From: an archaeon UBA543
GTDB taxonomy: Archaea; Undinarchaeota; Undinarchaeia; Undinarchaeales; UBA543
Reading direction: 5' to 3'
Length of the DNA stretch: 64,000 nt
NCBI GenBank assembly: GCA_002502135.1
Contig: DAPM01000011.1
Span: 7,736 to 71,735 of the forward strand
Every line of letters begins with the position of its first letter. Within the stretch, counting starts at the first letter, position 1. Made by a program: the position numbers and the translations under genes. Under the pieces are notes generated by a model, which was not told the DNA's origin, made no database searches, and saw only the letters and a program-made list of their open reading frames with translations. Below, piece by piece: positions 1,100-63,007 of the stretch.

Positions 1100-2149
1100 A
1101 TGGACGTTGGTATAGTCGGCTACGGCTCTTACATCCCAGTTTACAGAATCAAAGTAGAAGCAATAGCGAAAGTATGGGGGCAGGACGCTGAAACAATGAG
1201 AAAAGGCTTGAAAGTCGATGAAAAATCAGTTCCAGCACCAGATGAAGACACTGCAACAATTGCAGTTGAAGCAAGCAGAAACGCTATGCTGAGAGCCAGA
1301 ATCAATCCAAAAAGAATCGGCGCAGTTTATGTCGGCTCTGAATCCCACCCTTACGCAGTTAAACCAACTGCAACAATTCTCGCAGAAGCTTTAGAAGCAA
1401 CTCCAAACCTAACCGCAGCTGACTTCGAATTCGCCTGCAAGGCCGGCACAGCTTCAATGCAGGCAATTTTCGGATTAGTCAAAGCAGAAATGATCGAATA
1501 TGGAGTAGCAGTAGGCTCAGACACTTCGCAGGGAGCACCAGGAGGAGCATTAGAATACACTGCAGCAGCTGGTGGAGCATCATTCATAATCGGAAAGGCC
1601 AATTTAATTGCAAAACTCAACGGCACCCGCTCTTTCACCACAGACACTCCAGATTTCTGGCGCAGAGAACGGCAAGCATACCCTCGCCACGGCGGACGCT
1701 TCACAGGAGAGCCAGCATATTTCAAACACATTCTCACTGCATCAAAAAACATGATGAACGGACTCGGCTTAGAACCAAAAGACATCAACTATTTTGTCCC
1801 ACACCAGCCAAATGGCAAATTCCCTCGCCAAGCAGCCAAGAAACTCGGCTTCACAGAAGACCAACTTCTCCAAGGACTCTTATCACCACAAATCGGAAAC
1901 ACTTACTCAGGCGCTTCACCACTCGGACTCACTGCAGTTCTTGACATAGCCAAACCAGATGAGAAAATCCTCCTAACCTCTTACGGCTCAGGAGCAGGCT
2001 CAGATTCATTTGTCTTCACAGTCACTGATAAAATCCTAGAAGTGCAAGGCTTAGCACCTAAAACCAGCGACTACATTAACAAAAAAAAGTACGTGGATTA
2101 CGGCACTTACGCAAAATATCGGGGGAAAATTAATTTGGCTGATGAATAA
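1100..2149 (+). CDS. hydroxymethylglutaryl-CoA synthase (archaeal HMGS)
   Basis: 349-aa ORF with a condensing-enzyme fold and N-terminus [11 protein letters not shown]. It is the first gene of the HMGS/thiolase/DUF35 trio typical of archaeal mevalonate pathways. Confidence 0.88.
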
Positions 2150-8410: not shown

Positions 8411-9978
8411 AACGTATCATAAAGAATCCACGAGTATTGATTCTTCTAATCTTTCTTGTAATTGCGGTTCTAGCAATCCCAAGTTTCAAATCTGATGGTG
8501 TTGCTGTTGCTTATGTTGCTCCTAGCTCACCTTTCTATGAGCAGGTTGACCAGGGCTGGATGATAAATTCTGTAAATGCAGTTCCTGTTACAACTCTGGA
8601 TGAGTACGCAGTACAAATCTCCAAACTAGCACCTGGAGATAATGTGACTTTTGATATTGAAGGCACTATTTTCAAATCAGTACTTGACCCAGATCCAAAA
8701 AATCCTGAATTAGCTTACACTGGTTTGAATGTGATGAGCACAAAAGCTACAAATCTTGAAATGGGGCTTGACCTGCAGGGCGGTGCAAGAGTAGTTCTCC
8801 GACCAGTACCCTCTGAATCAACTACCCCAGTAACAGACGAGCTTATAGACACAACCACAAGCGTGCTAATGGCCAGAATGAATGCTTACGGCCTGAAAAA
8901 CGTGGTCATCCGCAAAATAACTGATGTAAACGGACTCACTTTCATAGAAGTTGAAATGGCAGGCGAAGGTTCTGAGCAAGTTGTTGACATTGTAAAGAGT
9001 GTTGGTCTTTTTGAATTAAAAGTTCTTAATCAAACCTTAATCACAGGAGAATATATTGTTCCTCCAATCGGAGAACCACAGAGAGACTCCAGAAGCGGTT
9101 TGTGGCAGGTTGCATTTGCAATAAACAATGAAGGTGCGCGCCTTCTACGTGAGGGATATGTTGATCTCACTCCATCTGTCCCAGATTCCTGTTCAACAGA
9201 TGAAGAGTGTGAGCCTGCTTATGCTTGTTCCAGAGGATTGGCAACTGGCCAGTGTCTGCCAAGAATCGAAATGTTCCTTGACGATGCTCTCCAGTACTCA
9301 GCTCCTCCTGCTCAAGCATTATTCCAGACCTGGCAATATGGTGAGGATTCAAAGAACCTGCTTGTGCAATCTGCAAAATCAGAGGATGCACAGAAAGTCA
9401 AGATCGTGCTTGAAGCTGGCCGACTTCCAAAAGATGTGAAAGAACTACATGTTTATTCTCAAGATTATGTTGATGCAAAACTCGGCAAAGGATTTGTGCG
9501 CGGTGCAATTTACGCAGGACTTGCAGCAATTCTCGCAGTATTCTTGGTAGTGCTTATTCGCTACAAGAAAATGAAAGTTGTTCTTCCAATTATTTTCGTG
9601 GATGTTGCAGAGCTTGTAATAATTATCGGATTCGCTGCAATGATTAAATGGTCACTTGACCTGCCTGCAATAGCAGGATTAATCGCAGTTCTTGGAACAG
9701 CTGTCGACCAGCAGATTGTTATCACTGACCAGATCCTATCGGGAGACTCAGGACAGAGCTACAACCTGAAAAAGAGTGTTAAGACAGCATTCAAGATTGT
9801 TGTCATAGCTGCTTCAACAACAATTGCAGCAATGCTGCCATTAGCCTACCCAGGCTTCACCGGCCTGTACGCACTCCGCGGTTTCGCAATAGTGACTATT
9901 CTCGGTGTTCTTGTCGGACTTCTAATCACCAGACCTGCTTTCGCAAGAATGGCGGAGATGTTGTTAGGGGAAGAATGA
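8395..9978 (+). CDS. secD: protein-export membrane protein SecD
   Basis: 527 aa with the string GLDLQGGARVVL, a large extracytoplasmic domain and a C-terminal TM bundle. It overlaps secF. Confidence 0.82.
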   Translation: MASRMKRIIKNPRVLILLIFLVIAVLAIPSFKSDGVAVAYVAPSSPFYEQVDQGWMINSVNAVPVTTLDEYAVQISKLAPGDNVTFDIEGTIFKSVLDPDPKNPELAYTGLNVMSTKATNLEMGLDLQGGARVVLRPVPSESTTPVTDELIDTTTSVLMARMNAYGLKNVVIRKITDVNGLTFIEVEMAGEGSEQVVDIVKSVGLFELKVLNQTLITGEYIVPPIGEPQRDSRSGLWQVAFAINNEGARLLREGYVDLTPSVPDSCSTDEECEPAYACSRGLATGQCLPRIEMFLDDALQYSAPPAQALFQTWQYGEDSKNLLVQSAKSEDAQKVKIVLEAGRLPKDVKELHVYSQDYVDAKLGKGFVRGAIYAGLAAILAVFLVVLIRYKKMKVVLPIIFVDVAELVIIIGFAAMIKWSLDLPAIAGLIAVLGTAVDQQIVITDQILSGDSGQSYNLKKSVKTAFKIVVIAASTTIAAMLPLAYPGFTGLYALRGFAIVTILGVLVGLLITRPAFARMAEMLLGEE

Positions 9979-13123: not shown

Positions 13124-13830
13124 TGAAAACCGTAGCAGTTTTTGATATTGATGGAACGCTCCTAAAAGGCAACATCTATCTAACTATTGTAAAATATGTT
13201 TATCTTCACAAAATTGTCTCCAAATTCCTTCATCCCAAAACTAGTAATTATTCAACACACTTTTCTGACAAAATAAAACTCAAAACTGTTCTGAAAAGTT
13301 TCCAACTCATCCTCTTCCACAGACTTAATCTACCACTTAAATTCGAATATCTGAAAACTCACCTTCTTGGTTTTGTGCAAGGCTGGACAGTTGATAAATT
13401 CCAAAACGCCTTTCAACAGTTTTTCCAGAATCATTTAAAGTCTAGAGTATTTCCGCAGATGCGCGAGCAAGTTCGTAAACACAAAGCTGAAGGAAAAACT
13501 ATTGTATTCCTAACAACCCAACCAACTGAAATTGCTGAAGTTGTCAAAAACGATCTTGGAGCTGACTATTGCATTTCAACCACACTTGAAACAAACAACA
13601 ATCATTATACTGGAAATATAAAAGATATCTGTTTTGGCGCAGAAAAGCTTGTTCTCCTCAATAAATTCCTAAAACAGCACAGCATCGACTTGAAAAACAG
13701 TTTCTCATATGCTGACAGTTTTTCTGATATTGATGTTCTGAAAGCAGTTGGTAATCCAGTTGTTGTAAACCCAGACGGCAAATTAAAGAAATTCGCTCAA
13801 AAAAACAACTGGAAAATTCTTAATTACTGA
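13123..13830 (+). CDS. HAD-IB family hydrolase (SerB-like phosphatase)
   Basis: 235 aa with the FDIDGTL motif I, an inserted cap region and a C-terminal SDIDVL-type motif. Confidence 0.65.
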   Translation: MKTVAVFDIDGTLLKGNIYLTIVKYVYLHKIVSKFLHPKTSNYSTHFSDKIKLKTVLKSFQLILFHRLNLPLKFEYLKTHLLGFVQGWTVDKFQNAFQQFFQNHLKSRVFPQMREQVRKHKAEGKTIVFLTTQPTEIAEVVKNDLGADYCISTTLETNNNHYTGNIKDICFGAEKLVLLNKFLKQHSIDLKNSFSYADSFSDIDVLKAVGNPVVVNPDGKLKKFAQKNNWKILNY

Positions 13831-18147: not shown

Positions 18148-18807
18148 TTACTTTCCTTTCTGATTAACAAAAGTATACACCCCAATCCCTAACAAAATTA
18201 TGAAGATTATCAGTTTCATGTACAATGGAAAACTCAATGTTGGTTTAAACATTTTCATTGCCCAGTTCTCAAGAATTCCAACATACATCAAGTTTGTCAA
18301 ATAAGCTAATGGAAGTGCAATCAGCATTATCCTAAATCCTTCAATCAACTTACCAGGGGCAACCAGAAGTGTAATGATAATCATTATAACATACATGCAC
18401 GCTGTATATGTGAATAAAGTCAGCAGAAGGTTTTGATTGTAAACATAAAAATAGAACACTGGAACGAGCGAGAAAGAGATAAATGTGGCAAAAGCAGCCA
18501 TAATACTTTCATCTGGTTTCCACATCCTACTCAGTAGTGGCAGTAATGCAACATAAATCGCACACACTAGTCCTATTTTTATTCCTCCAAAATGAATTGC
18601 TAACAACACTCCAAAGAACTCGCCCATATTGATCTCGTACAAGTAATGATTAACACACCCTGGAATCTCTGTCAGCAAAGAAATTAATAGAATCCAAAAA
18701 ATAAAAGAAATCGTCTTGTTAAAAAATCCTGTCAGAACAGCAAGAACAAGAAAACCAGTGCTAGCGTAATAAATCCTATCCCAGGACACGATTCCTCTTT
18801 CTTTCAT
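18148..18807 (-). CDS. polytopic membrane protein, family member 1 (tandem paralog)
   Basis: 219 aa. It aligns end to end with the adjacent 18804-19463 product (GIVSWDRI..., TEIPG..., LLAIHFGG, SRMWKP, YNQNLL, LPLAYLTNL). Confidence 0.6.
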   Translation of the reverse strand: MKERGIVSWDRIYYASTGFLVLAVLTGFFNKTISFIFWILLISLLTEIPGCVNHYLYEINMGEFFGVLLAIHFGGIKIGLVCAIYVALLPLLSRMWKPDESIMAAFATFISFSLVPVFYFYVYNQNLLLTLFTYTACMYVIMIIITLLVAPGKLIEGFRIMLIALPLAYLTNLMYVGILENWAMKMFKPTLSFPLYMKLIIFIILLGIGVYTFVNQKGK

Positions 18808-19463
18808 TTTTTCTTGTTAAAATAAATATACGCACCAATCCCAGCCATACACAGGATTATAATAATTTTATACAAACCCGGGAAGTGTGGAGTCGGCAGA
18901 AACATTCCTATTGCCCAGTTCTCCAGAGCAAAAACATAAATCAGGTTTGTCAAATAAGCAAGCGGAAGCGCAATTGCAAGAAGTTTTACTTCCTGGAAAA
19001 ACTGCCCAGTTGTCAGGAAAATTGAAAGAATTGCGATTATCCCAAAGAGTATTCCAGTATATGTGTAAAGAGTCCACAGCAGATTCTGATTATAAACATT
19101 ATAATAGAAGAACGGGGCTGTTCCAATTGCAATTGCAAAAGCCACTGACCCTTTTATTGCCAAGCTCGGCTTCCACATCCTGCTGAAAACAGGCAGCATT
19201 GCAGTGTACACTATTCCAAGAAGCCCTATCCAAAACCCTCCAAAATGAATAGCAAGCAGTACAAAAAAGAATTCTGACAAGTTTATTTCAATTAAATTTT
19301 CATTAATGAATCCTGGGATCTCTGTCCACAATGAAATCAGAATAATCCAGGTGATAAATGACAGAGTCTTGCTGAAAAAACTCAATAAAAGCCCTAAAAC
19401 AACCAATCCTGCGCTAATGTAAAATATCCGATCCCATGACACAATTCCTTTCTCTACCATCAA
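18804..19463 (-). CDS. polytopic membrane protein, family member 2 (tandem paralog)
   Basis: 219 aa, same length and motifs as 18148-18807. Its stop overlaps the start of the downstream paralog. Confidence 0.6.
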   Translation of the reverse strand: MMVEKGIVSWDRIFYISAGLVVLGLLLSFFSKTLSFITWIILISLWTEIPGFINENLIEINLSEFFFVLLAIHFGGFWIGLLGIVYTAMLPVFSRMWKPSLAIKGSVAFAIAIGTAPFFYYNVYNQNLLWTLYTYTGILFGIIAILSIFLTTGQFFQEVKLLAIALPLAYLTNLIYVFALENWAIGMFLPTPHFPGLYKIIIILCMAGIGAYIYFNKKK

Positions 19464-23315: not shown

Positions 23316-23665
23316 TGTTTCCAGGAATGAACCTAAACCCAAAGAAAATGCAGAAGATGATGCAGCAGCTCGGAATGAGCATGGACGAGATAGACGCCTC
23401 TGAAGTGATTATTAAGAAAACTGACGGAACTGAAATTCGAATTTCAAATCCTGAAGTTTCTAAAATGATTGTTCAGGGCAAGGAAATGTATCAGATTGCC
23501 GGCGGTTCTGAAGGATCTGCAGAATCTGAAAGTGTTGAAGTCAGTGAAGCAGATGTTGAAATGGTTACCACTCAAACTGGCGCCACTCCTGATGCTGCAA
23601 AAACTGCATTGGAATCCTCTGGCGGAGATCTTGCCAAGGCAATTCTAGACTTGCAGGAAGAGTAA
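23315..23665 (+). CDS. nac: nascent polypeptide-associated complex protein (NAC plus UBA)
   Basis: 116 aa with N-terminus NPKKMQKMMQQLGM, a NAC beta-barrel segment and a C-terminal UBA-like TALESSGGDLAKAI. Confidence 0.88.
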   Translation: MFPGMNLNPKKMQKMMQQLGMSMDEIDASEVIIKKTDGTEIRISNPEVSKMIVQGKEMYQIAGGSEGSAESESVEVSEADVEMVTTQTGATPDAAKTALESSGGDLAKAILDLQEE

Positions 23666-24058
23666 TCACAATTTGTACGACTCTGCATTCCACATTGGAT
23701 GCAGACTATTCTTTTCAATTGGTTCCAGCTCGAGCTTTTTCAAAAGATTAACACTCTCTTGTTTCTGATCTTTAAGCTGTTTCAGAGCTTTCTCTCTTTT
23801 CCCTATCAAACTATTCATTGCTTTTGTTGGAGTTACTCCACAGTACTCCCGCGGACTAGTGTATTTGTAAGATACCAGTCTTTTATCTTCCAAGCTCTTC
23901 ATAACCTGATAGATCTTTGTCTGTCGGATTCCTCCGTAAGTGCAGATGTCTTTTGCAGTTGCTTCTCCTTTACAGAAGAGCACAATCATGACCCGCGCTT
24001 GATATTCTGTTAATCCAAGTTGTTTGAGATATGTTGTCATTTGCTTCATTTGTTTCAC
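23666..24058 (-). CDS. TrmB-family winged-helix transcriptional regulator
   Basis: 130 aa with the strings LGLTEYQARVMIVL and KDIC...GIRQTKIYQVMKSLEDKRLV. Confidence 0.75.
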   Translation of the reverse strand: MKQMKQMTTYLKQLGLTEYQARVMIVLFCKGEATAKDICTYGGIRQTKIYQVMKSLEDKRLVSYKYTSPREYCGVTPTKAMNSLIGKREKALKQLKDQKQESVNLLKKLELEPIEKNSLHPMWNAESYKL

Positions 24059-35627: not shown

Positions 35628-36719
35628 TTAAAATATCCTAACAATCCGCAATTCCCCTGCATTCTCATTCCCAATCAAGCCTTTCTTCACTCTGTGCAGA
35701 CACAAAGTATAATCAGCTTTAACTGCAGCGCCAGTAAAATCACCATTATCTGGATTCACACCAGAAGGCACATCCACTGAAACCACAGGAACATCCTTTC
35801 CATTTATCCACTTAATTGCAGAAGCAAGCGGTTCTCTGGCATCTCCTCGAAGTCCTGTTCCACAAATAGCATCAATAATAATATCAGCTCCAAATCCGCC
35901 AATACTCTCAGGAGCAAGAATTGTGTAAAATTGTATTCCAAGCTCTTCAGCTCTTTTGAAATTCTCTTTAGATAATTCAGTTTTCTGCTCTTCAAAAACA
36001 GTCATTTCAACTTCAACACCAGCTTCTTTCAAGTATCTTGCAGCAACAAACCCATCTCCGCCATTGTTCCCGGATCCACAGAACACAACCACTTTCTTTC
36101 CATTAAGCTCGAAATTATTCTGAACAAAATGAGCAATTCCTTTTCCAGCTTTTTCCATTAAATCCTTTTTCGGAATTCCTCCGCCTTCTTCCAGTGCAAT
36201 CATGCCAGCAGTATCAATATAATGCTCCAGTTCTTCGTGCTGCATTCTGAATCGCTGAACTTGAATTGCATCATTTCCCCATCGCTTTTTCCAGCCAATT
36301 AATTCTTTCTTGAATTCAATTTCCTTGTTATTATCAATCAGGTTGTCAGCATAAGAAACAATCTTCTGCTCAACAGTAATTGGTAAAAAGTCCTCTTCTG
36401 GAAGTCCAAGCTTTGTTGTTTCGCTTTTTTTGATTCCAGCACCAACATGCCGTTTTGCAATCTGTGCAACTTCTTCAGGTGCTCCAAGCTCTACCAACTT
36501 CTCGTAACCCAATAGTCCGTGTTTTATCGTATGCTCGTCAGCGCGTCCAATATCGTGAAGCATTGAACCAGTATCAACAAGACCTCTGTTAACTTTAATC
36601 CCGTCAGCAATCAGCGCATCTGCCAGCTCAAGAGCCTTATTATTAACTACTTTGCAGTGATTCTGAAGCTTTTCAGGATAGTTTATGTCTTTCCAAATCT
36701 TGCTAATATTTAGTTTCAT
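35628..36719 (-). CDS. HD-domain phosphohydrolase fused to NAD(P)H-hydrate epimerase (YjeF_N/NnrE) domain
   Basis: I prefer the ATG at 36719 (MKLNISKIW). HD signature strings are LHDIGR and HVGAG. The C-terminal half has CGSGNNGGDGF and DAICGTGL. The track N-terminus (to 36890) is read-through of the repeat element. Confidence 0.72.
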   Translation of the reverse strand: MKLNISKIWKDINYPEKLQNHCKVVNNKALELADALIADGIKVNRGLVDTGSMLHDIGRADEHTIKHGLLGYEKLVELGAPEEVAQIAKRHVGAGIKKSETTKLGLPEEDFLPITVEQKIVSYADNLIDNNKEIEFKKELIGWKKRWGNDAIQVQRFRMQHEELEHYIDTAGMIALEEGGGIPKKDLMEKAGKGIAHFVQNNFELNGKKVVVFCGSGNNGGDGFVAARYLKEAGVEVEMTVFEEQKTELSKENFKRAEELGIQFYTILAPESIGGFGADIIIDAICGTGLRGDAREPLASAIKWINGKDVPVVSVDVPSGVNPDNGDFTGAAVKADYTLCLHRVKKGLIGNENAGELRIVRIF

Positions 36720-36760
36720 TTTAGTAATTGTAAATGAGTAGCCACGAGCAGCTCCAAACC

Positions 36761-36914
36761 TCTGCTGATATTTGAATTGTTGAAATTGGTTAATTGGTTC
36801 TTGACTGGCGCTCCAGAGTGCAGCGCGTACTGCATGAAGCTCCATTCGCTTCGCGAAGGGGCTTAAACAATTCAACTGAAGTTGGTTCAAGCTGTCTGAG
36901 TTAGTTACCTATGA
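36761..36914 (+). mobile_element. ~154-bp repeated structured element, copy A
   Basis: The 88-nt core 36801-36888 is identical at 81/88 positions, without gaps, to 61608-61695. The left arm ctgctgatatttgaattg and right arm tgagtta are shared. It is bracketed by a 26-nt direct repeat (36735-36760 and 36915-40). The strand is inferred from G:U pairs. Confidence 0.7.
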
Positions 36915-36915
36915 T

Positions 36916-36991
36916 TGGTAGCCCCGAGCAGATTCGAACTGCTGTCCCAAGCTCCAGGGGCTCGGATGATTGACCACTACACCACGGGGCT
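36916..36991 (-). tRNA. tRNA-Gln (anticodon CTG), CCA encoded
   Basis: Minus strand reads AGCCCCG TG GTGTAGTGGTCAATCAT C CGAGC CCCTGGA GCTTG GGAC AGCAG TTCGAAT CTGCT CGGGGCT A CCA. It has an A1:U72 pair as in archaeal tRNA-Gln. Position 33 is C rather than U. Confidence 0.8.
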
Positions 36992-37030
36992 AATGGTTTT
37001 TTGATAAAAGTATGCCTTTATAATTCTTTC

Positions 37031-37783
37031 TTAGTGAAGTTCCCCAGTCTTACGCCAGTTAATTCCTAATTCTTCTATAATCTCAACTGCCTTATTCCGA
37101 TACTCTCCTTTCATCCCATCCCAATCAAAAACAGCTTTAGTTGCATTACTTCCCTCAATCATCTGCTGAATAATCTCCTTAGACACATTCTCTTGCTGAT
37201 ACTTTGGCAAAATATGCCCGAAAGCAATATTTGGATTCTCTAAAATCAGTGTTGAAAACCCTGGAGCATAATGTGGACCACCGAATCCAATACAATTTGT
37301 GAAAGTCTTAGTATTTTCTAAAATATCCTTAACAGCATTAGCAACAATTTTACCAGCTTCCTCATCCTTCCACTCCTTCTCAGTTGATCCAATTTCAATA
37401 AAAACAAGCGGAGTTTTCAAAGTCGGACCGTGATGTGTCACTTCCAAACAAACTTCAAAACCAGGAAGCTGAGCCTTGGCCATACTTCTCAAACCAACAG
37501 CAATAGCAGAAGGATCAGTTGGATTCAGCTTCTTCGGCTCCCCACCATAATCAGCATTTCCAAAATTCCCAGTAGCGTGAATAGTCAATGATTTTTTATT
37601 AGCAACACTCTTGTGCGTGCTCGGAATTATCAGCAAATCAGCTTCTGGAACGTCCTCTTTCTCCAAATAAAGAAAATCTTTCTCTGTTTCAAAAATCGGA
37701 ACATCTACTCCAAGCTCATTGAACTGTTTCATAATATTCTGTGCAGCTGGATTTTCTGTCCAATACAGGATTTTCGTATTCAT
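37031..37783 (-). CDS. dtdA: D-aminoacyl-tRNA deacylase, archaeal DtdA (DTD2) type
   Basis: I prefer the ATG at 37783 (MNTKILYWTENP). The strings SLTIHATGNF, EVTHHGP and GFGGPHYAP are present. Confidence 0.8.
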   Translation of the reverse strand: MNTKILYWTENPAAQNIMKQFNELGVDVPIFETEKDFLYLEKEDVPEADLLIIPSTHKSVANKKSLTIHATGNFGNADYGGEPKKLNPTDPSAIAVGLRSMAKAQLPGFEVCLEVTHHGPTLKTPLVFIEIGSTEKEWKDEEAGKIVANAVKDILENTKTFTNCIGFGGPHYAPGFSTLILENPNIAFGHILPKYQQENVSKEIIQQMIEGSNATKAVFDWDGMKGEYRNKAVEIIEELGINWRKTGELH

Positions 37784-39457: not shown

Positions 39458-41512
39458 ATGCGGGGGAGAATTGTAATCATTGCACTATTATTTCTAATAA
39501 TCTTATCCAGCCCAGTCTTTGCAGCTTCAGAAGTCAAGACATACCGCGATTCTGAATACACTTACCAATCTGAATACTTCACAGATGGCGGAACAATTTA
39601 CATTCTGGCCTCAAATTCTGTCACCTGTTGTGATGACATTACTGCAACAATTTCAGTAAACAATGTTGATAAGAGCACAATCACCCTGAAAGACGAAGGC
39701 AATGGCTTTTACAAAGGAAACTTCAAAATAAATTCTGAAATCACAGCTGGTTTTGTTCAAATGGCAAACAGCGAACAAGCCACAATCCAGGTCGAGTTCA
39801 CTCCAATCTACAAGCGCAGTTCAAGCACAACAGCCTACTACATCAAACCAAAATCAACAGAACTAACTGCAGAATTGAAAGACTATGCAACTCTTTCTTG
39901 GGATGAAATCTCCCCAGACATAGCACTTTCACACTACAACATTTACAGAAGCACTGAAGAGCTCACAGACGCCAACAAAAAGCTTGCAGACACTTTCACA
40001 ACAGCAGTTGATGAATACGAAGACTCCACAACAAGAGATGGAAAAACCTACTGCTACGGTGTTTCTGCAGTTGATATTGCAGGCAACATTGCAGAATTGT
40101 CAAATGTGGAATGCCTTGACCTTGAAGATGAAACAGCACCAAGCTCAGTAACTGGTTTGACAGCAACTCCAATTCAAGGTGGCAGAATCAAAATCTCCTG
40201 GAAGGAATCTGAAGACAATGTAGCTGTAAATGAATACAATATTTACAAATTAAAAGAAGAGGATGATGAAATTGATCTTGACGATCCTGATGAAGCAGTT
40301 TTGGAAACCGAATACATTGACGAGAAACTGAAAGACGGCAAAACCTATTATTATACAGTCTCTGCTGTTGACACTTCTGAAAACATCGGCCCTGCGTCTC
40401 CAGTAGTCAGCGCAGTTTCTGACAAAAATCCTCCAACCGAATCTGCTTTAACTGCAGAAAGACAGAGGGGCGGAAAAGTTGTTCTTTCCTGGACAGAAAT
40501 CTATGGCGCAGAGTATTATTATTTGTATGCAGGAACTTCAAAAGCACTAGAAGTCGAGCCTGTAGTTCTTTCAGGAGACACACTAACTCACACCCATTTC
40601 CCGCAAGCTGAAACTTTCTATGCTGTTTCTGCTGTGGATTCTGCAGGAAACGAAGCAGAATTATCAAACATATTAAGCATTACCCCAGATTCAGAGCCTC
40701 CAAAATCAGTAACTGGCTTGTCAGCAGTTGCAAATCCTGATAACAGCATCACACTCACTTGGACAGAATCAACTGACAAAGACTTCAAGCAATACAACAT
40801 TTACCGCTCAGCTGTTTCCAGCATCTCATTCTCAGTTCCAATTAAAATCACAACCCTCAACTCTTTCACAGACAGGGAACTAAACCACAATCAACAGTAT
40901 TTCTATGTTGTCCGCGCAGAAGACGAAGCAGGAAATGAAGATAATAATCAAAGATCTGTTAGTGAAACAGCAAGAGACCTCAACTTAAAATTGGAAGTAG
41001 TTCAGCCATCTGCAGAAATTCGAGTTTCACAAGATATGCTGGTGGTTGCTGGAATCACAGACCCAGATGCAATTATGAGCATTTCAGGAATCACAGAAGA
41101 CATTTTAATTGACGACAATGGCGGTTTCCTTACAATCATTCCACTTATCTCAGGTGAGCAGGAAATTATTGTCAGAGCTACTGATCCAAATGACAATGTG
41201 AAAACAGAAATCCTGAAAGTGAATAACAGAAAAGATGAAATCAGCGCAGATGCTGAAACAATCAGAAAAGAACACCTGAACAAGCTCAAACTCCTAAGTG
41301 AAACAGCACCTGGCCAAATTCAGCAGTTGAATATTGAAGCATCTGAAGATATTCTAAAACAAGCAGATCCTGAAGTGAATATTGGTGAAGTGTCCCAGAT
41401 TACAGGATTAGTAACTGGAAGCAGAGGTGGAATCTGGTCTTCTATAATCGGTTTTATTTTCGTAGGTGGAATAATTGCAGTGTTGTATGGTAAAAAGAAG
41501 GGATTGTTTTAG
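39458..41512 (+). CDS. secreted surface protein with repeated fibronectin type III-like domains and C-terminal TM anchor
   Basis: 684 aa with a signal peptide. At least four repeats have the pattern W..S......YNIYRS...Y.Y.VSAVD..GN. It ends with a hydrophobic C-terminus plus KKKG. Confidence 0.7.
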   Translation: MRGRIVIIALLFLIILSSPVFAASEVKTYRDSEYTYQSEYFTDGGTIYILASNSVTCCDDITATISVNNVDKSTITLKDEGNGFYKGNFKINSEITAGFVQMANSEQATIQVEFTPIYKRSSSTTAYYIKPKSTELTAELKDYATLSWDEISPDIALSHYNIYRSTEELTDANKKLADTFTTAVDEYEDSTTRDGKTYCYGVSAVDIAGNIAELSNVECLDLEDETAPSSVTGLTATPIQGGRIKISWKESEDNVAVNEYNIYKLKEEDDEIDLDDPDEAVLETEYIDEKLKDGKTYYYTVSAVDTSENIGPASPVVSAVSDKNPPTESALTAERQRGGKVVLSWTEIYGAEYYYLYAGTSKALEVEPVVLSGDTLTHTHFPQAETFYAVSAVDSAGNEAELSNILSITPDSEPPKSVTGLSAVANPDNSITLTWTESTDKDFKQYNIYRSAVSSISFSVPIKITTLNSFTDRELNHNQQYFYVVRAEDEAGNEDNNQRSVSETARDLNLKLEVVQPSAEIRVSQDMLVVAGITDPDAIMSISGITEDILIDDNGGFLTIIPLISGEQEIIVRATDPNDNVKTEILKVNNRKDEISADAETIRKEHLNKLKLLSETAPGQIQQLNIEASEDILKQADPEVNIGEVSQITGLVTGSRGGIWSSIIGFIFVGGIIAVLYGKKKGLF

Positions 41513-41514
41513 TT

Positions 41515-41543
41515 CTCCGCGGATATTTGAATTGGTTAAATTT
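41515..41543 (+). repeat. solo left end of the 154-bp element (copy C, truncated)
   Basis: ctccgcGgatatttgaattggttaaattt matches 61567-61595 at 28/29 positions. It lies in the 41-nt gap between two convergent genes. Confidence 0.7.
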
Positions 41544-41553
41544 TTAGAATAGC

Positions 41554-43482
41554 TCAATTTCCTGTAAATTTCGGCCTTCGTGACAATTCTCTTGGCAAAC
41601 TCAATTTCTTGAAAACCATTCCCTCACACTTTTTCTGAATTTCTGCAACTAAATCAGCCAAACTCATATCAACAACTTTTCCAGAACTCCTAACTCTCAC
41701 AGGAATCTTCTTTGCTTTCAATTCCTTATCCCCAATCACAAGAGTATAAGGCACCCACTCTTTCTCACTTCCAGAAATTTTCTTCCCAACACTCTCGCCC
41801 CTGTCATCAATATCAACACGAATATTGGCTTTCTCTAGTTCCTCAGCAATTTTCAAGCAAGCTTTATTATGCGAATCTGAAACAGCGCAAACCCTAACCT
41901 GAGTTGGCGACAGCCACAACGGTAGAATTCCTTTCTTACCCTTCTGCTGATCCATATACGCTTTCTCAAGCAGAGCGTAAATTGCTCGTTCAATAGCTCC
42001 GCCTGGTGACATGTGCAAAATTACTGGCCTGTGCTCCTTACCATCCTCACCAATATAATTCAAATCATAAGTATCTCCATTTTCAACATCAATCTGATCA
42101 GTAGTCAATGTCGCTGCCTTATCCAAAGCATCAACAAAATTAATTTCATACTTCATAACAAAATAAAAGAATCTCTTATCCCAAACTTCAACCAGCATTG
42201 GCCTGCCCCATTTCTTTGCAAGATCTTTAATTACTTCAGGATGCTCATCTTCAAATTCCTTAACCCATCGCATTGCAAATTCCAAATCATCCTTCTTGTC
42301 AAAGCCATATCCTTTCAGAACTTTCTCAGCAAGATTAAACCTAACTAAAAGTTCTTCACTTGCCTGCTTCACATCAGTACATAGTGCATGCACATCAGGC
42401 ATTGTAAATGCTCTCAATCGCCTCAAACCAGCTAATTCTCCTCTTTTCTCAGTCCTGAAGCTGTATCTGGTCATCTCATAAATCTTCAAAGGCATATTCT
42501 TGTACGAAATCGTAGCATCGTGCGCCATCAGGAACTGCCCAAAACACGCTGAAAACCGCAGGAAACACTCCTTATTTGGGGTTTTTACAATATATTGTCG
42601 CGCTGGGAAGCGGTTAAGGTACTTTTTCAGCACAGGGTGCTCGTAATCATACATTATCGGTGCTTCCACTTCCATCCCACCATAATCTACAACTTCTCTA
42701 GTGGTATAATCCTCAAGCAAACCTTTAATCAGTCTGCCATTCGGGTAAAACCTTAAATTCCCAGGATCACTTCCAGGCTCGTAATCAGCAATTTCCAGTT
42801 TCTTCATCAATTCAATATGTGGAGGCTGTTTGTCAACAGTGCGATTCTTTGCTAATTCGTACAAGCACATCTTCTCCAGCTTTGGATATTTTTCAAAATT
42901 ATAACCCTTAATTTTTCCGTTCTCAATTTTGATTTCATGCCTCTTTCCTGTTGGCTCTAAAATATAGAATTTGGACTTCAGCAATTCCTCTTTCTTCACA
43001 GCTTCAGAAACTGCCTGTTCCTCAGCTCCCTCTTTCTCAAGTCCAGGCTCACCACCAGCGCGAATAATTCTGGACCACTCACTAAGCGGATGACCCTTGC
43101 ACTTCATTTCAAATTCCTTATACCAGCCAAATGGACTTAGCTTGACTTTCAATCCTTTCTTCTCAAGTCCATCTTTTACTAAATTCTGAATTTCAAGAGC
43201 AGTTCTCGGCTTTGACGGCTTTGCGCCATAAAGCAAGTGAACATACGGATAGAAAACAACATTCTTGGTCTTGAGCTGGTCGGAAATCTTAATCAAATCA
43301 GCAACAGCTTTCTTTGCAACTTCCTTTTCATGACCTTCATCCTCAACTTCAGTTGCAAATCTGGCAAACAAACACTCTTCCATCCTGCCTTTCTTCTGGT
43401 CGTCTTTCAGCTCCCCGGCTAGTTTTGTCTTCTTCTTCGCCTGCCATTGCACGTAGTCAACATGCTGAATGAGCTCCTTCAT
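41554..43482 (-). CDS. thrS: threonyl-tRNA synthetase (archaeal type with N-terminal DTD-like editing domain)
   Basis: 642 aa with an archaeal-type N-terminal editing region, a class II core and a C-terminal anticodon-binding domain. Confidence 0.88.
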   Translation of the reverse strand: MKELIQHVDYVQWQAKKKTKLAGELKDDQKKGRMEECLFARFATEVEDEGHEKEVAKKAVADLIKISDQLKTKNVVFYPYVHLLYGAKPSKPRTALEIQNLVKDGLEKKGLKVKLSPFGWYKEFEMKCKGHPLSEWSRIIRAGGEPGLEKEGAEEQAVSEAVKKEELLKSKFYILEPTGKRHEIKIENGKIKGYNFEKYPKLEKMCLYELAKNRTVDKQPPHIELMKKLEIADYEPGSDPGNLRFYPNGRLIKGLLEDYTTREVVDYGGMEVEAPIMYDYEHPVLKKYLNRFPARQYIVKTPNKECFLRFSACFGQFLMAHDATISYKNMPLKIYEMTRYSFRTEKRGELAGLRRLRAFTMPDVHALCTDVKQASEELLVRFNLAEKVLKGYGFDKKDDLEFAMRWVKEFEDEHPEVIKDLAKKWGRPMLVEVWDKRFFYFVMKYEINFVDALDKAATLTTDQIDVENGDTYDLNYIGEDGKEHRPVILHMSPGGAIERAIYALLEKAYMDQQKGKKGILPLWLSPTQVRVCAVSDSHNKACLKIAEELEKANIRVDIDDRGESVGKKISGSEKEWVPYTLVIGDKELKAKKIPVRVRSSGKVVDMSLADLVAEIQKKCEGMVFKKLSLPRELSRRPKFTGN

Positions 43483-60080: not shown

Positions 60081-60190
60081 TGGTGGGCCCAAGGGGATTT
60101 GAACCCCCGATTTGCAGCTTAGAAGGCTTGCGGAAGGCGAAGAAAAAACTCGCGCCCCTTGCCGCCTTATCCAGACTAGGCTATAGGCCC
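60081..60190 (-). tRNA. tRNA-Arg (anticodon TCT) with 32-nt intron in the anticodon stem (non-canonical position), CCA encoded
   Basis: Exon 1 (60190-60160) reads GGGCCTA TA GCCT AGTCTGGATA AGGC G GCA. The intron (60159-60128) reads AGGGGCGCGAGTTTTTTCTTCGCCTTCCGCAA. Exon 2 (60127-60081) reads GC CTTCTAA GCTGC AAATC GGGGG TTCAAAT CCCCT TGGGCCC A CCA. Splicing restores the stem GCAGC/GCTGC. Confidence 0.75.
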
Positions 60191-60930
60191 ATTTTTGTAA
60201 TAACAAAAGGGCTTAACTCCCTTTTTAATATTTTGTATCGCTGTTTTATTGAAGTATTTGGGGGTACAAAGCCATATCTCTTCCATATTTTATACTTTGT
60301 TAAATATACTGGATTCTTAAAACCAATTAAGTCTATCCATTTTTCTACGCGTGCACATCCTTCAACGCAAATAGAATATGCCACAGTGTTATTTCCCCCA
60401 ACTCTTTTATGTAATCTTGTAAAATATTTTATTCCTAATTTGTCTAACATTTTGCACATATCTTCAACCAAAATTTTAGCAACACATTTAATCTGAATTC
60501 TTGGGTAGTTATGATATTTTCTTTTAAATTCAATATATTTCCCATATCTCTTATCAAAATTTAAACAACCATCACCATCAGCAAAACCTCGCAAAAACGA
60601 AGCTAAAACTTCAGTATCCTCACTTTCTCTTATCTGTTTTGGAACTCGCATAGTGTATGTTTTATTACCTGGTTTAAAACCAAGATTATTAAAAAAATCC
60701 CCTATCTTTCTATCACAAGTATAAAATCCATAGACACTATTGCTCGTTTTTTCATGAACTCTCAAGATTATTCCAAAGTTATTTAAAAATATTTTTGTTA
60801 AATGATTATCATAGTACTCTCTATCTTCTGTAATATTTCCCCAGATGCAGACATATGCTTTTTGAAGGCAACCATCTGCGCAAAAGATTCCACAGATTTC
60901 TGCTAATTCTGGAGATATTTCAGTTTTCAT
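60181..60930 (-). CDS. free-standing LAGLIDADG homing endonuclease (double-motif)
   Basis: 249 aa and very AT-rich. The two LAGLIDADG-type motifs are GIFCADGCL and LRGFADGDGCL. The last four codons (ATG GGC CTA TAG) are supplied by the first 10 nt of the tRNA-Arg(TCT) gene. Confidence 0.8.
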   Translation of the reverse strand: MKTEISPELAEICGIFCADGCLQKAYVCIWGNITEDREYYDNHLTKIFLNNFGIILRVHEKTSNSVYGFYTCDRKIGDFFNNLGFKPGNKTYTMRVPKQIRESEDTEVLASFLRGFADGDGCLNFDKRYGKYIEFKRKYHNYPRIQIKCVAKILVEDMCKMLDKLGIKYFTRLHKRVGGNNTVAYSICVEGCARVEKWIDLIGFKNPVYLTKYKIWKRYGFVPPNTSIKQRYKILKRELSPFVITKMGL

Positions 60931-61488: not shown

Positions 61489-61566
61489 CCTTTCAGAACT
61501 AGTTGAGGGTTGTTTATAAAGACTATCCTAAACCACTTTAGAACTTTTTTTAGCAATCCTTCATAA

Positions 61567-61719
61567 CTCCGCTGATATTTGAATTGGTTAAATTTGTGAA
61601 TTTATCATTGACTGGCGCTCCGGAGTGTGGCGCGTACTGCATGAAGCCCTATTCGCTTCGCGAAAGGGCTTAAACAATTCAACTGAAATTGGTTCGATTT
61701 GTTGAGTTAACTGTTTTAA
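61567..61719 (+). mobile_element. ~154-bp repeated structured element, copy B
   Basis: The core 61608-61695 is 81/88 identical to 36801-36888. It is bracketed by a 25-nt direct repeat (61542-61566 and 61720-61744, 23/25 identical). Confidence 0.7.
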
Positions 61720-61730
61720 AACTTTTTTTA

Positions 61731-61744
61731 ACAATCCTTTATAA
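61731..61744 (+). promoter_or_regulatory. BRE/TATA-like promoter of the nucleotidyltransferase gene (leaderless spacing)
   Basis: acaatcc tttataa ends 24 nt before the ATG at 61769. It lies inside the right-hand direct repeat of element copy B. Confidence 0.4.
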
Positions 61745-61768: not shown

Positions 61769-63007
61769 ATGATTTCAAAAGCATTGATACTAGCAGCTGG
61801 CGACAACAAGAGAATGAAACCGCTCTCAGATTTGAGAAATAAGTCGCTCCTGCCAGTAGCTAACAAGGCCATAATTTCACGCAGTCTGGCTTCTCTAAAG
61901 CAGGCTGGAATAACTGAAGCAATCCTAATAGTCAATCCTAAAAATGAAGTTGAAAAACAGCTTGGAGCAGAGCACGAGGGAATTAAATTATCTTATACAG
62001 TTCAGCCAGAACCGCTAGGCACCGCACATGCAATCAGCATGGCAAAGGATCAGATTTCTGAAGATTTCTTAGTCCTAAACGGTGATGATTTCTGCAATTC
62101 TGAGCATCTGAAAAATCTATTATCTTCTCACAAAACCAAAGCAACTGTTTCTGTAATTAAAAAAACAGATCCTAAAGGTCTTGGAGTTGTTGAAGTTGAA
62201 AACAATCTTGTTAAAAGTCTGGTGGAAAAACCAGAATCAGCAGAAGGCGAGCATTTTGTCAATATTGGAATTTACGCATTCTCTCCTGAAATATTCGCAA
62301 CAATTGAAACCCTTGAAAAATCTGAGCGTGGTGAATATGAAATCACTGATGCAATAACAAAACTCATTCCTGACGGAGTTTCTGCAATCACAGCAGACTC
62401 TTGGCTTCCAATAAATTATCCTTGGGATCTTCTAATCGCTAACAAACAATTCATTGACGAAATTCCTGAAGATATCAAAACAGAATTTGATCATGGTGTT
62501 ACTGTAAAAGGAAAACTAGTAGCAGGAGCGGGTACTTTTATCAAAGCAGGAGTCTATATTGAAGGCCCTGTACTGATTGGCAAGAACTGTACAATCGGAC
62601 CAAATGCGTTCCTACGAGCTTACACCTGCATTGGCGACAACTGTAAAATCGGTCAGGGAGTTGAAGTCAAGAATTCGATAATCATGGATGGAACTTGCGT
62701 TCCTCATCTTTCTTATATTGGCGATTCTGTAATTGGTAGAAATGTTAACTTCGGAGCAGGGGCCATAATGACTAACCTGCGCCACGACGATCAGAATGTT
62801 CTTGTTTATGTTAAAGGCGTGCAAACTGATTCAGGCCTCAGAAAACTTGGAGCAATAGTTGGCGACACTGTCAAATTCGGTTCAAATGTTGTTGTAACTC
62901 CTGGAAAAAAGATCGGTTCTGGTTCAAGAATCTGGCCAGGCCTTGTGGTTTACAAGGATGTTGAAGAGAATTCTGAATATAAAGGTCAGGCCAGTGAAAT
63001 AAAGTAG
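61769..63007 (+). CDS. bifunctional sugar-1-phosphate nucleotidylyltransferase / left-handed beta-helix acetyltransferase (GlmU-like)
   Basis: 412 aa with N-terminus LILAAGDNKRMKP and GTAHA. The C-terminus has hexapeptide repeats (IG.N..IG.G..V). Confidence 0.82.
   Translation: MISKALILAAGDNKRMKPLSDLRNKSLLPVANKAIISRSLASLKQAGITEAILIVNPKNEVEKQLGAEHEGIKLSYTVQPEPLGTAHAISMAKDQISEDFLVLNGDDFCNSEHLKNLLSSHKTKATVSVIKKTDPKGLGVVEVENNLVKSLVEKPESAEGEHFVNIGIYAFSPEIFATIETLEKSERGEYEITDAITKLIPDGVSAITADSWLPINYPWDLLIANKQFIDEIPEDIKTEFDHGVTVKGKLVAGAGTFIKAGVYIEGPVLIGKNCTIGPNAFLRAYTCIGDNCKIGQGVEVKNSIIMDGTCVPHLSYIGDSVIGRNVNFGAGAIMTNLRHDDQNVLVYVKGVQTDSGLRKLGAIVGDTVKFGSNVVVTPGKKIGSGSRIWPGLVVYKDVEENSEYKGQASEIK

Follow-up and report, generated by a model that had tools for sequence, protein, structure and literature searches.

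The window analyzed here, a stretch of 64,000 nucleotides from the archaeon UBA543 (Undinarchaeales), contains two nearly identical 88-nt segments whose few differences appear to preserve hairpins. A preliminary description made from the letters of the sequence proposed that these segments are a structured RNA encoded on the plus strand. The locus therefore raises the question of whether the repeat is best described as a family of RNA genes, or as another kind of element that carries conserved secondary structure. The two cores (36801-36888 and 61608-61695) align without gaps and differ at seven positions, precisely as reported, and direct comparison shows that all seven differences are transitions (copy A/copy B: 36815 A/G, 36821 C/T, 36822 A/G, 36841 T/C, 36843 C/T, 36858 G/A, 36881 G/A). 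The positions given for two hairpins, a GCGCT/AGCGC stem and a 10-bp inverted repeat are also correct. Sub-strings of 18 and 22 nt from the core occur only at these two sites in the window, compared with 0.02 and 0.00 expected occurrences, so the similarity is not due to chance. The core is 59% G+C, compared with 40% for the window.

The repeat extends beyond the 88-nt core. Repeat finding gives 144 nt at 85% identity, and a covariance model built from seven homologues, the E-values of which are rough, matches approximately 146 nt at each of the two sites (Table 1). At copy A the inserted DNA probably runs on to 36917. No further full copy was found in the window by the covariance model even with its filters off, and a match at 23515-23748 lies inside a coding region and is attributed to chance. 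The window contains two full copies and one solo leader. Minus-strand ORFs pass through copies A and B in different frames, so the repeat is not coding, and the 158-nt insert at copy A is itself without an ORF.

Table 1. Positions of the repeat, its modules, its flanking features and its homologues (window coordinates unless a contig is named; CM, covariance model).
Feature	Position	Strand	Remarks
Copy A (leader, P1, P2, tail)	36760-36905		CM 169 bits; nhmmer E 1e-44; site empty in L102, L098 and L099
Copy A leader	36760-36804		AT-rich, most sequence-conserved module: CTCYGCTGA..TTTGAATTG.T.AA.TT.. (alignments)
Copy A hairpin P1	36806-36829		36806-36812 pairs with 36822-36829, G36827 bulged; contains the GCGCT/AGCGC stem
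Hairpin 1 of the preliminary description	36819-36834		tgcag cgcgta ctgca
Copy A hairpin P2 (hairpin 2 of the preliminary description)	36837-36864		36837-43 pairs with 36858-64; 36845-49 pairs with 36853-57
Copy A tail	36865-36905		TAAACAATTCAACTGAAGTTGGTTC...TGAG (alignment)
Decayed duplicate of the tRNA-Gln 3' end	36738-36759		GTAGCCACGAGCAGCTCCAAAC; left target duplication of copy A
tRNA-Gln(CUG)	36916-36991	-	ARAGORN and Rfam; right target duplication of copy A is its 3' 21 nt (36918-36939)
HD + YjeF_N (NAD(P)H-hydrate epimerase) gene	35628-36719	-	parted from tRNA-Gln by the copy A insertion
Solo leader	41515-41548		pattern match; CM E about 0.01; nhmmer E 0.004
Copy B	61567-61712		CM match, 167 bits
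Copy B hairpins	P1 61613-19 / 61629-36; P2 61644-50 / 61665-71 and 61652-56 / 61660-64		
Left target duplication of copy B	61537-61566		degenerate copy of the promoter region of the glmU-like gene (TTTAGAACTTTTTTTAGCAATCCTTCATAA)
Right target duplication of copy B	61715-61744		working promoter (TTTATAA box) of the NTP-transferase gene 61769-63007
Homologue in L077	6294-6493		
Homologue in L081	9733-9942		
Homologue in L089	13621-13766		
Homologue in L091	498-644		
Homologue in L092	1535-1666	-	
Homologue in L095	960-1104		

Homologues were located on contigs encoding relatives of the adjacent NTP-transferase and HD/YjeF_N proteins, and by matching a degenerate leader pattern against metagenomes; the contigs that bear them come from related marine Undinarchaeales (Table 1). 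Degenerate tandem remains of the element are present in a further contig, L101. In about 200 kb of related DNA there are eight full copies, several of which are closely related, and the metagenomic contigs may carry assembly errors. Eight of the 13 pattern matches in metagenomes (L083, L084, L086, L087, L088, L090, L093, L094) match in the leader only and look like chance; that in L088 has a bacterial Shine-Dalgarno context. The 18-mer GCGCGTACTGCATGAAGC has 67 matches in representative genomes, all of them chance occurrences in GC-rich bacteria that do not extend. Searches of plasmids and phages with blastn gave no match, two scans of viral contigs gave nothing relevant, and in a relative at about 50% amino acid identity there is no element in 21 kb. 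Two proteins that neighbour the element have Candidatus Undinarchaeales as their closest named relatives, proteins of the window have identical counterparts on Tara Oceans contigs, and the tRNAs of the window are of archaeal type, one of them intron-bearing. As far as sampled, the repeat is confined to a single subclade of the marine Candidatus Undinarchaeales (DPANN).

The element is an interspersed repeat with a typical unit of ~146-160 nt, its copies measuring 146-210 nt, and consists of a 45-nt AT-rich leader, the GC-rich hairpins P1 and P2, and a tail of ~40 nt. The leader is almost invariant except in L095, and a 26-nt degenerate leader pattern matches all homologues but this one. The tail motif GAANTTGGTTC is invariant in seven homologues, and in the alignment the tails end in ...CTGTYTGAG with no A-run. 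The two ends of the element have in common only CTC...GAG; beyond this they form no terminal inverted repeat, and the 10-bp inverted repeat noted previously is subterminal. The motif AANTTGGTT is not enriched outside the elements (6 found compared with 6.1 expected).

The hairpins, in contrast to the leader, are constant in shape and variable in sequence. P1 changes from G-C to A-U pairs in L089 and is rebuilt in L092 and L081. The base of P2 is AAGCYCY/RRGGCTT in most copies and is inverted, as GTGGGGT/ACCCCAC, in L092, while its apical stem changes from TTCGC/GCGAA to TTCACC/GGTGAA in L091. Two homologues have insertions at a hairpin tip, of 54 nt in P2 (L077) and ~58 nt in P1 (L081), both of which are near-perfect hairpins. 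The sequences of P1 (TGGCGC/GCGCGCA) and P2 (AAGCCCC/GGGGCTT) are unrelated to each other.

The leader also occurs without the hairpins. The solo leader in the window occupies a 41-nt spacer between two convergent genes, 39458-41512 on the plus strand and ThrRS (41554-43482) on the minus strand. In L098 and L099 these two genes overlap by a few bases, with neither spacer nor solo leader, which indicates that the solo leader was either inserted alone or is the remnant of a larger insertion. The plus-strand gene encodes an fn3 surface protein.

Gathering further homologues and folding them with RNAalifold, as the preliminary description had suggested, recovered a conserved structure. In the alignment fitted to the model, 97.2% of the cells in P1 and P2 are paired and nine pairs are changed on both sides, and a plain MAFFT alignment gives 94.7% and five pairs. 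Slid controls have 30-55% of cells paired and 0-2 pairs changed on both sides, and the observed values are matched by 0 to 1 of 500 shuffles; these tests rest on a small sample of seven to eight distinct homologues. P1 considered separately has 98% of its cells paired and 3-4 pairs changed on both sides, and RNAalifold independently selects the core of P1 and the base of P2. P1 and P2 are conserved in structure through compensatory substitutions, as are structured non-coding RNA genes.

Hairpin 2 of the preliminary description, which was said to be kept in both copies, is our P2; covariation among the seven to eight homologues supports it, and it tolerates the 54-nt tip insertion. The change of C36843:G36858 to T:A is a true double compensatory change, as had been claimed, and is the sole real covariation between copies A and B. 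The accompanying argument that five of the seven substitutions are neutral to pairing overstates the two-copy evidence. The other changes counted as neutral are single transitions that convert Watson-Crick pairs to wobble pairs, and about half of all transitions in a stem give a wobble on a given strand. Hairpin 1 as drawn is the weaker of two stems that are mutually exclusive, because its loop is the 3' strand of P1: it has 89.5% of cells paired, two of its pairs have changed at both positions, and 36-54 shuffles out of 500 do as well. The GCGCT/AGCGC stem within P1 had been regarded as a competitor of hairpin 1. It does exclude that hairpin; however, it is the better supported of the two, both by the comparative data and by RNAalifold. 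A pseudoknot combining P1 and hairpin 1 would have no linker between its strands and is sterically implausible. The 10-bp repeat proposed to close the fold (ttgaattgtt at 36772-81 with aacaattcaa at 36866-75) is not conserved in homologues: it has 10 bp in copy A, 8 in copy B and L089, and 6 in L077 and L091, and is absent from L081 and L095.

The proposal that only the plus strand can be the RNA does not hold, since the two strands score about equally and the minus strand folds at least as well. Single-sequence folding of full-length elements gives a z-score of -2.3 for the minus strand compared with -0.5 to -1.2 for the plus strand. For the 88-nt core the strands are about equal in copy A (-1.5 compared with -1.4) and the minus strand is better in copy B (-2.4 compared with -1.5). 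The consensus energy from alifold is -22.2 kcal/mol for the minus strand and -15.9 kcal/mol for the plus strand, and the minus-strand structure has 96.2% of cells paired and eight double changes. The minus strand also gains a 6-bp extension of P2 (GAAUUGU with AUGCAGUAC), in which three pairs differ on both sides; it includes two U.G pairs that the plus strand would have as C.A mismatches. With its conserved secondary structure the core is a candidate structured RNA, which may be read from either strand.

The surroundings of the copies bear more directly on what the element is. In L102, the closest relative (86% amino acid identity in HD/YjeF_N), tRNA-Gln ends 12 nt before the ATG of the HD gene on the same strand. 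In the window there are about 158 nt of extra DNA between the two genes, bounded on the right by the intact 3' end of the tRNA (TAGCCCCGAGCAGATTCGAAC) and on the left, beside the HD gene, by a decayed copy of the tRNA end (TAGCCACGAGCAGCTCCAAAC). The two copies of this end are identical at 18 of 22 nt (36738-36759 compared with 36918-36939), and the sequence is single-copy in the empty L102 site. The tRNA-Gln site is likewise empty in L098 and L099, and it is here that L101 has its degenerate remains. The arrangement in L102 implies that HD/YjeF_N was co-transcribed with tRNA-Gln, and the minus strand of copy A is therefore probably transcribed.

Several further observations were made at this locus. 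ORF finders draw the HD/YjeF_N reading frame into the element, giving 420 aa in the window (35628-36890, minus strand), and in L103 (16638-17855) the protein is called at 405 aa in the public record. Since the orthologues are 362-364 aa in length and start with MKLNISK, both extensions are annotation artefacts of the insertion. The tRNA-Gln has a genomic CCA where the element adjoins it (window 36915-36917; L101 193-195; ...ATTGG|TAGCCCC), which is missing at the empty L102 site, and the TTGG that supplies it matches the recurring AATTGGT motif of the element. A P2 variant private to copy A, AAGCTCCA (36837-36844), is also found in the adjoining tRNA-Gln (36949-36956); as an 8-mer this match is not significant.

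Copy B is flanked by duplicated promoter sequence (Table 1), identical at 27 of 30 nt, with an alignment score of 45 compared with a shuffle maximum of 27. Elements are present at the same locus in L095 and L081. The locus is empty in L077 and L097, in which the promoter is single-copy. The element in L089 is flanked by a 66-nt duplication comprising a whole intergenic spacer, and that in L092 by a 54-nt duplication of the 3' end of RtcB; each of the duplications at copy B, L089 and L092 scores far higher than shuffled sequence. The L077 element lies 11 nt past tRNA-Arg(CCU), without a long duplication; the corresponding site in the window has no element. At three loci some lineages have an element where others do not, and the target duplications range from 0 to 66 nt (21, 30, 54 and 66; none in L077). 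The duplicated sequences differ at every locus, with no common att core. Orientation relative to the neighbouring genes is inconsistent among copies, as expected of a mobile element rather than a cis-regulator. Copies A and B do not bound a 24.8-kb island, since each has its own duplication and the interval is core genome, syntenic with L077 and L098, which belong to a single contig.

In L092 the last 18 codons of RtcB occur twice, flanking the element (1482-1575 and 1665-1757, plus strand), with a 32-nt block that is identical. The final eight codons differ at eight nucleotides, all of them synonymous (including TCT/AGC for Ser), and both copies end in PLISIKG*. This duplicate looks like a foreign allele acquired through recombination, and not like neutral decay. 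Complementarity between the interior of the element and the target flanks, of the kind that a guide might show, is limited to 8-mers that are not significant after multiple testing. A leader variant private to L089, ATTTACCA (13643-13652), also occurs in both of its target duplications, again as an 8-mer that is not significant. A degenerate sequence resembling the tail, CATGAAAGCCC...GCTTTAACCAGTTGGATTGTTGAGT, is found in L081 (~1470-1640) directly beside the 3' end of an apparent unannotated intron-containing tRNA on the minus strand, and would be a third or fourth case of a tail facing a tRNA 3' end. The element-free NTP-transferase promoters (L077 ~9870-9950; L097 1-120) have another GC-rich self-complementary segment upstream, e.g. 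CTGGGGCACCG...CCCCTGCGCCCCAG, which may be another small RNA or another repeat family. Elsewhere in the window, an intron-containing tRNA on the minus strand (60084-60190; Rfam 43 bits) is missed by ARAGORN and lies next to a 249-aa ORF (60181-60930, minus strand) with a faint match to LAGLIDADG_3. A 75-nt direct repeat at 80% identity (18247-18321 and 18900-18974, 653 nt apart) has no relation to the element and probably represents coding paralogues.

Because the copies are insertions flanked by target duplications, mobile repeat is the primary description, and not RNA gene. We consider it somewhat probable that the element is a new non-autonomous, structure-dependent repeat that is, or recently was, mobile. 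Such an element would settle in the small number of spacers that tolerate insertion in compact genomes, in particular immediately 3' of tRNA genes, and its insertion would often duplicate a long stretch of the target, leaving the interrupted tRNA, promoter or gene end intact. The maintenance of the hairpins by compensation suggests that the element is read as a single strand, either RNA or ssDNA, at some step, which may be recognition by a copying machinery acting in trans. After insertion it would be carried passively in host transcripts; at copy A, read-through of the minus strand would be required for HD/YjeF_N to remain linked to the tRNA-Gln promoter. About 85 kb of annotated neighbourhood contain no gene that could mobilise the element (transposase, integrase, RT or Cas1), and no longer element with the same ends is found in the annotated neighbourhoods or among the pattern matches.

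Other points also count against this reading. The elements of L081 and L095 at the glmU locus have a common tail variant that the window's copy at this locus does not have, and the neighbouring proteins in these contigs are 71% and 78% identical to that of the window. The shared variant points to long retention under selection, which is not required of a purely selfish element, and this retention makes a host function possible, as an sRNA or as a module of minus-strand transcripts. Additionally, recombination between the duplications can remove an element precisely and so leave a pattern of filled and empty sites.

The reading put forward in the preliminary description, a family of plus-strand genes for a trans-acting small structured RNA, is unlikely but accounts for several of these features. 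On this view the two hairpins would act as a scaffold, flanked by a leader and a tail that stay single-stranded and serve as seeds or bind proteins, and duplication would have produced the copies. The covarying hairpins agree with this, as does a core that is GC-rich in a 40% GC genome, like the tRNAs, and the expansions at the hairpin tips resemble those of structural RNAs. The retention of the glmU-locus element across lineages also speaks for it. Some G.U pairs are possible on the plus strand only (8 G.U cells compared with 2 A.C cells in P1 and P2), and inspection by eye finds TATA-like boxes 10-27 nt upstream of the elements in L081, L091, L095 and L077. However, a TATA box is missing upstream of copy A, L089 and L092, no canonical box is found internally, and the minus strand scores as well or better. 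There is no match to the element at gathering score in Rfam 15 in the whole window, and within 36650-37050 nothing but tRNA-Gln at E<=10; the preliminary description had allowed that a confident match to a known RNA family would count against its proposal, and none was obtained. By eye, 5S rRNA, tRNA-like, C/D-box, H/ACA, K-turn and group II domain V structures do not fit either. Target duplications and insertion at a tRNA gene are not products of gene duplication, and the solo leader exists without the hairpins that would be the scaffold.

It is also improbable that the element is a cis-acting RNA module read from the minus strand in the 3' trailers of tRNAs and mRNAs, where it would serve in processing, stabilisation or insulation in the manner of bacterial REP, BIME and Correia sequences. 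The tail abuts the 3' end of a minus-strand gene at copy A and in L101 (tRNA-Gln), in L077 (tRNA-Arg-CCU) and in L092 (RtcB), and expression of HD/YjeF_N from the tRNA promoter would need the transcript to pass through copy A. The better folding of the minus strand and the covarying 6-bp helix with its U.G pairs point in the same direction. However, no gene on the minus strand leads into the element at the glmU locus (window, L081 and L095) or in L089, and the covariation in the additional helix is one block difference common to L081 and L095, a single event.

The mobile repeat that we favour has likenesses to several known systems. MITEs and other small repeats (Correia/NEMIS, ERIC, BOX, RUP and the archaeal SM-type MITEs) are short, non-coding, multi-copy and intergenic, occupy sites that are filled or empty by lineage, have target duplications, and are co-transcribed with their neighbours. 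BOX elements are in addition modular, with partial (solo) units. As in MITEs, the element is short, non-coding and repeated and has no transposase of its own. However, the definition of a MITE requires terminal inverted repeats no shorter than 10-15 bp together with 2-10 bp target duplications (PMC11602168), whereas here the ends share only CTC...GAG, the duplications are of 0-66 nt, and the interior consists of two covarying local hairpins instead of the single TIR-derived hairpin of a MITE. Long direct repeats of variable length also arise at insertions of IS1634 and IS1549 (IS1634 family), for which target duplications of 8-514 bp by an unknown mechanism are described (PMC2266710). Those elements are 1.5-2 kb in length with a DDE transposase and inverted repeats, neither of which is found here.

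REP/BIME sequences and the PATEs derived from IS200/IS605 likewise have hairpins that are kept by compensation through single-strand recognition, and often lie at gene 3' ends. However, they insert without target duplication and their left and right hairpins are alike, in contrast to the long duplications and the unrelated P1 and P2 of this element. TnpA, TnpB and RAYT genes are not seen in the annotated neighbourhoods. Integrative elements that target tRNAs resemble copy A, which lies within a direct repeat of the tRNA-Gln segment from T-loop to 3' end such that the tRNA is intact and the displaced copy decays. Here, however, only 158 nt separate the repeats, the element encodes no integrase and has no constant att core, and its other insertions are not in tRNAs. 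It is very improbable that the copies are functionless remnants of larger integrated elements that lost their interior by deletion, leaving attL/attR and a residual arm: the copy A duplication is a classic integrase crossover segment and the L092 duplicate has differences like those of a foreign allele, but the ~146-nt unit and both of its ends recur in independent insertions, no att core is common to the duplicated sequences, no integrase remnant is found, and hairpins kept by compensatory change are unlike decay.

Eukaryotic SINEs are similar: they are small elements resembling structured RNAs, their target duplications vary in length, they rely on machinery provided in trans, and they lie to some extent preferentially near tRNA genes. 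In contrast to SINEs, the element does not end 3' in an A-rich or simple-repeat tract, it has no reverse transcriptase known as a partner, and no RT domain occurs in the annotated neighbourhoods. ARAGORN and Rfam detect no tRNA, 7SL or 5S ancestry. To our knowledge, archaea have no Pol III. An RNA-mediated mode of mobility, in which a small structured RNA produced by read-through transcription from the promoters of tRNAs or of other neighbours is copied back into DNA at staggered breaks, is quite improbable. If true, it would account for duplications of 0-66 nt, for hairpins under selection as RNA and for the bias towards tRNA 3' flanks, and the element would be a SINE-like retroposon or a new kind of RNA-recognised mobile element, in a DPANN lineage and with no known partner enzyme.

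The genomes of Undinarchaeota are among the smallest and most compact in the archaea. In such genomes the repeat appears to spread, has entered a tRNA gene with that gene restored, and has broken up a probable tRNA-mRNA co-transcript, and its two hairpins are kept by compensatory evolution without a visible mobilising gene. An archaea-wide survey found no eukaryotic-like transposons in Undinarchaeota (PMC13343696). The repeat misleads gene callers, as the extension of the HD/YjeF_N ORF illustrates, and gives population studies of marine Undinarchaeales a lineage marker. Its long target duplications of variable length may be the product of an insertion mechanism not yet described, and it provides a handle on how mobile DNA survives in reduced symbiont genomes.
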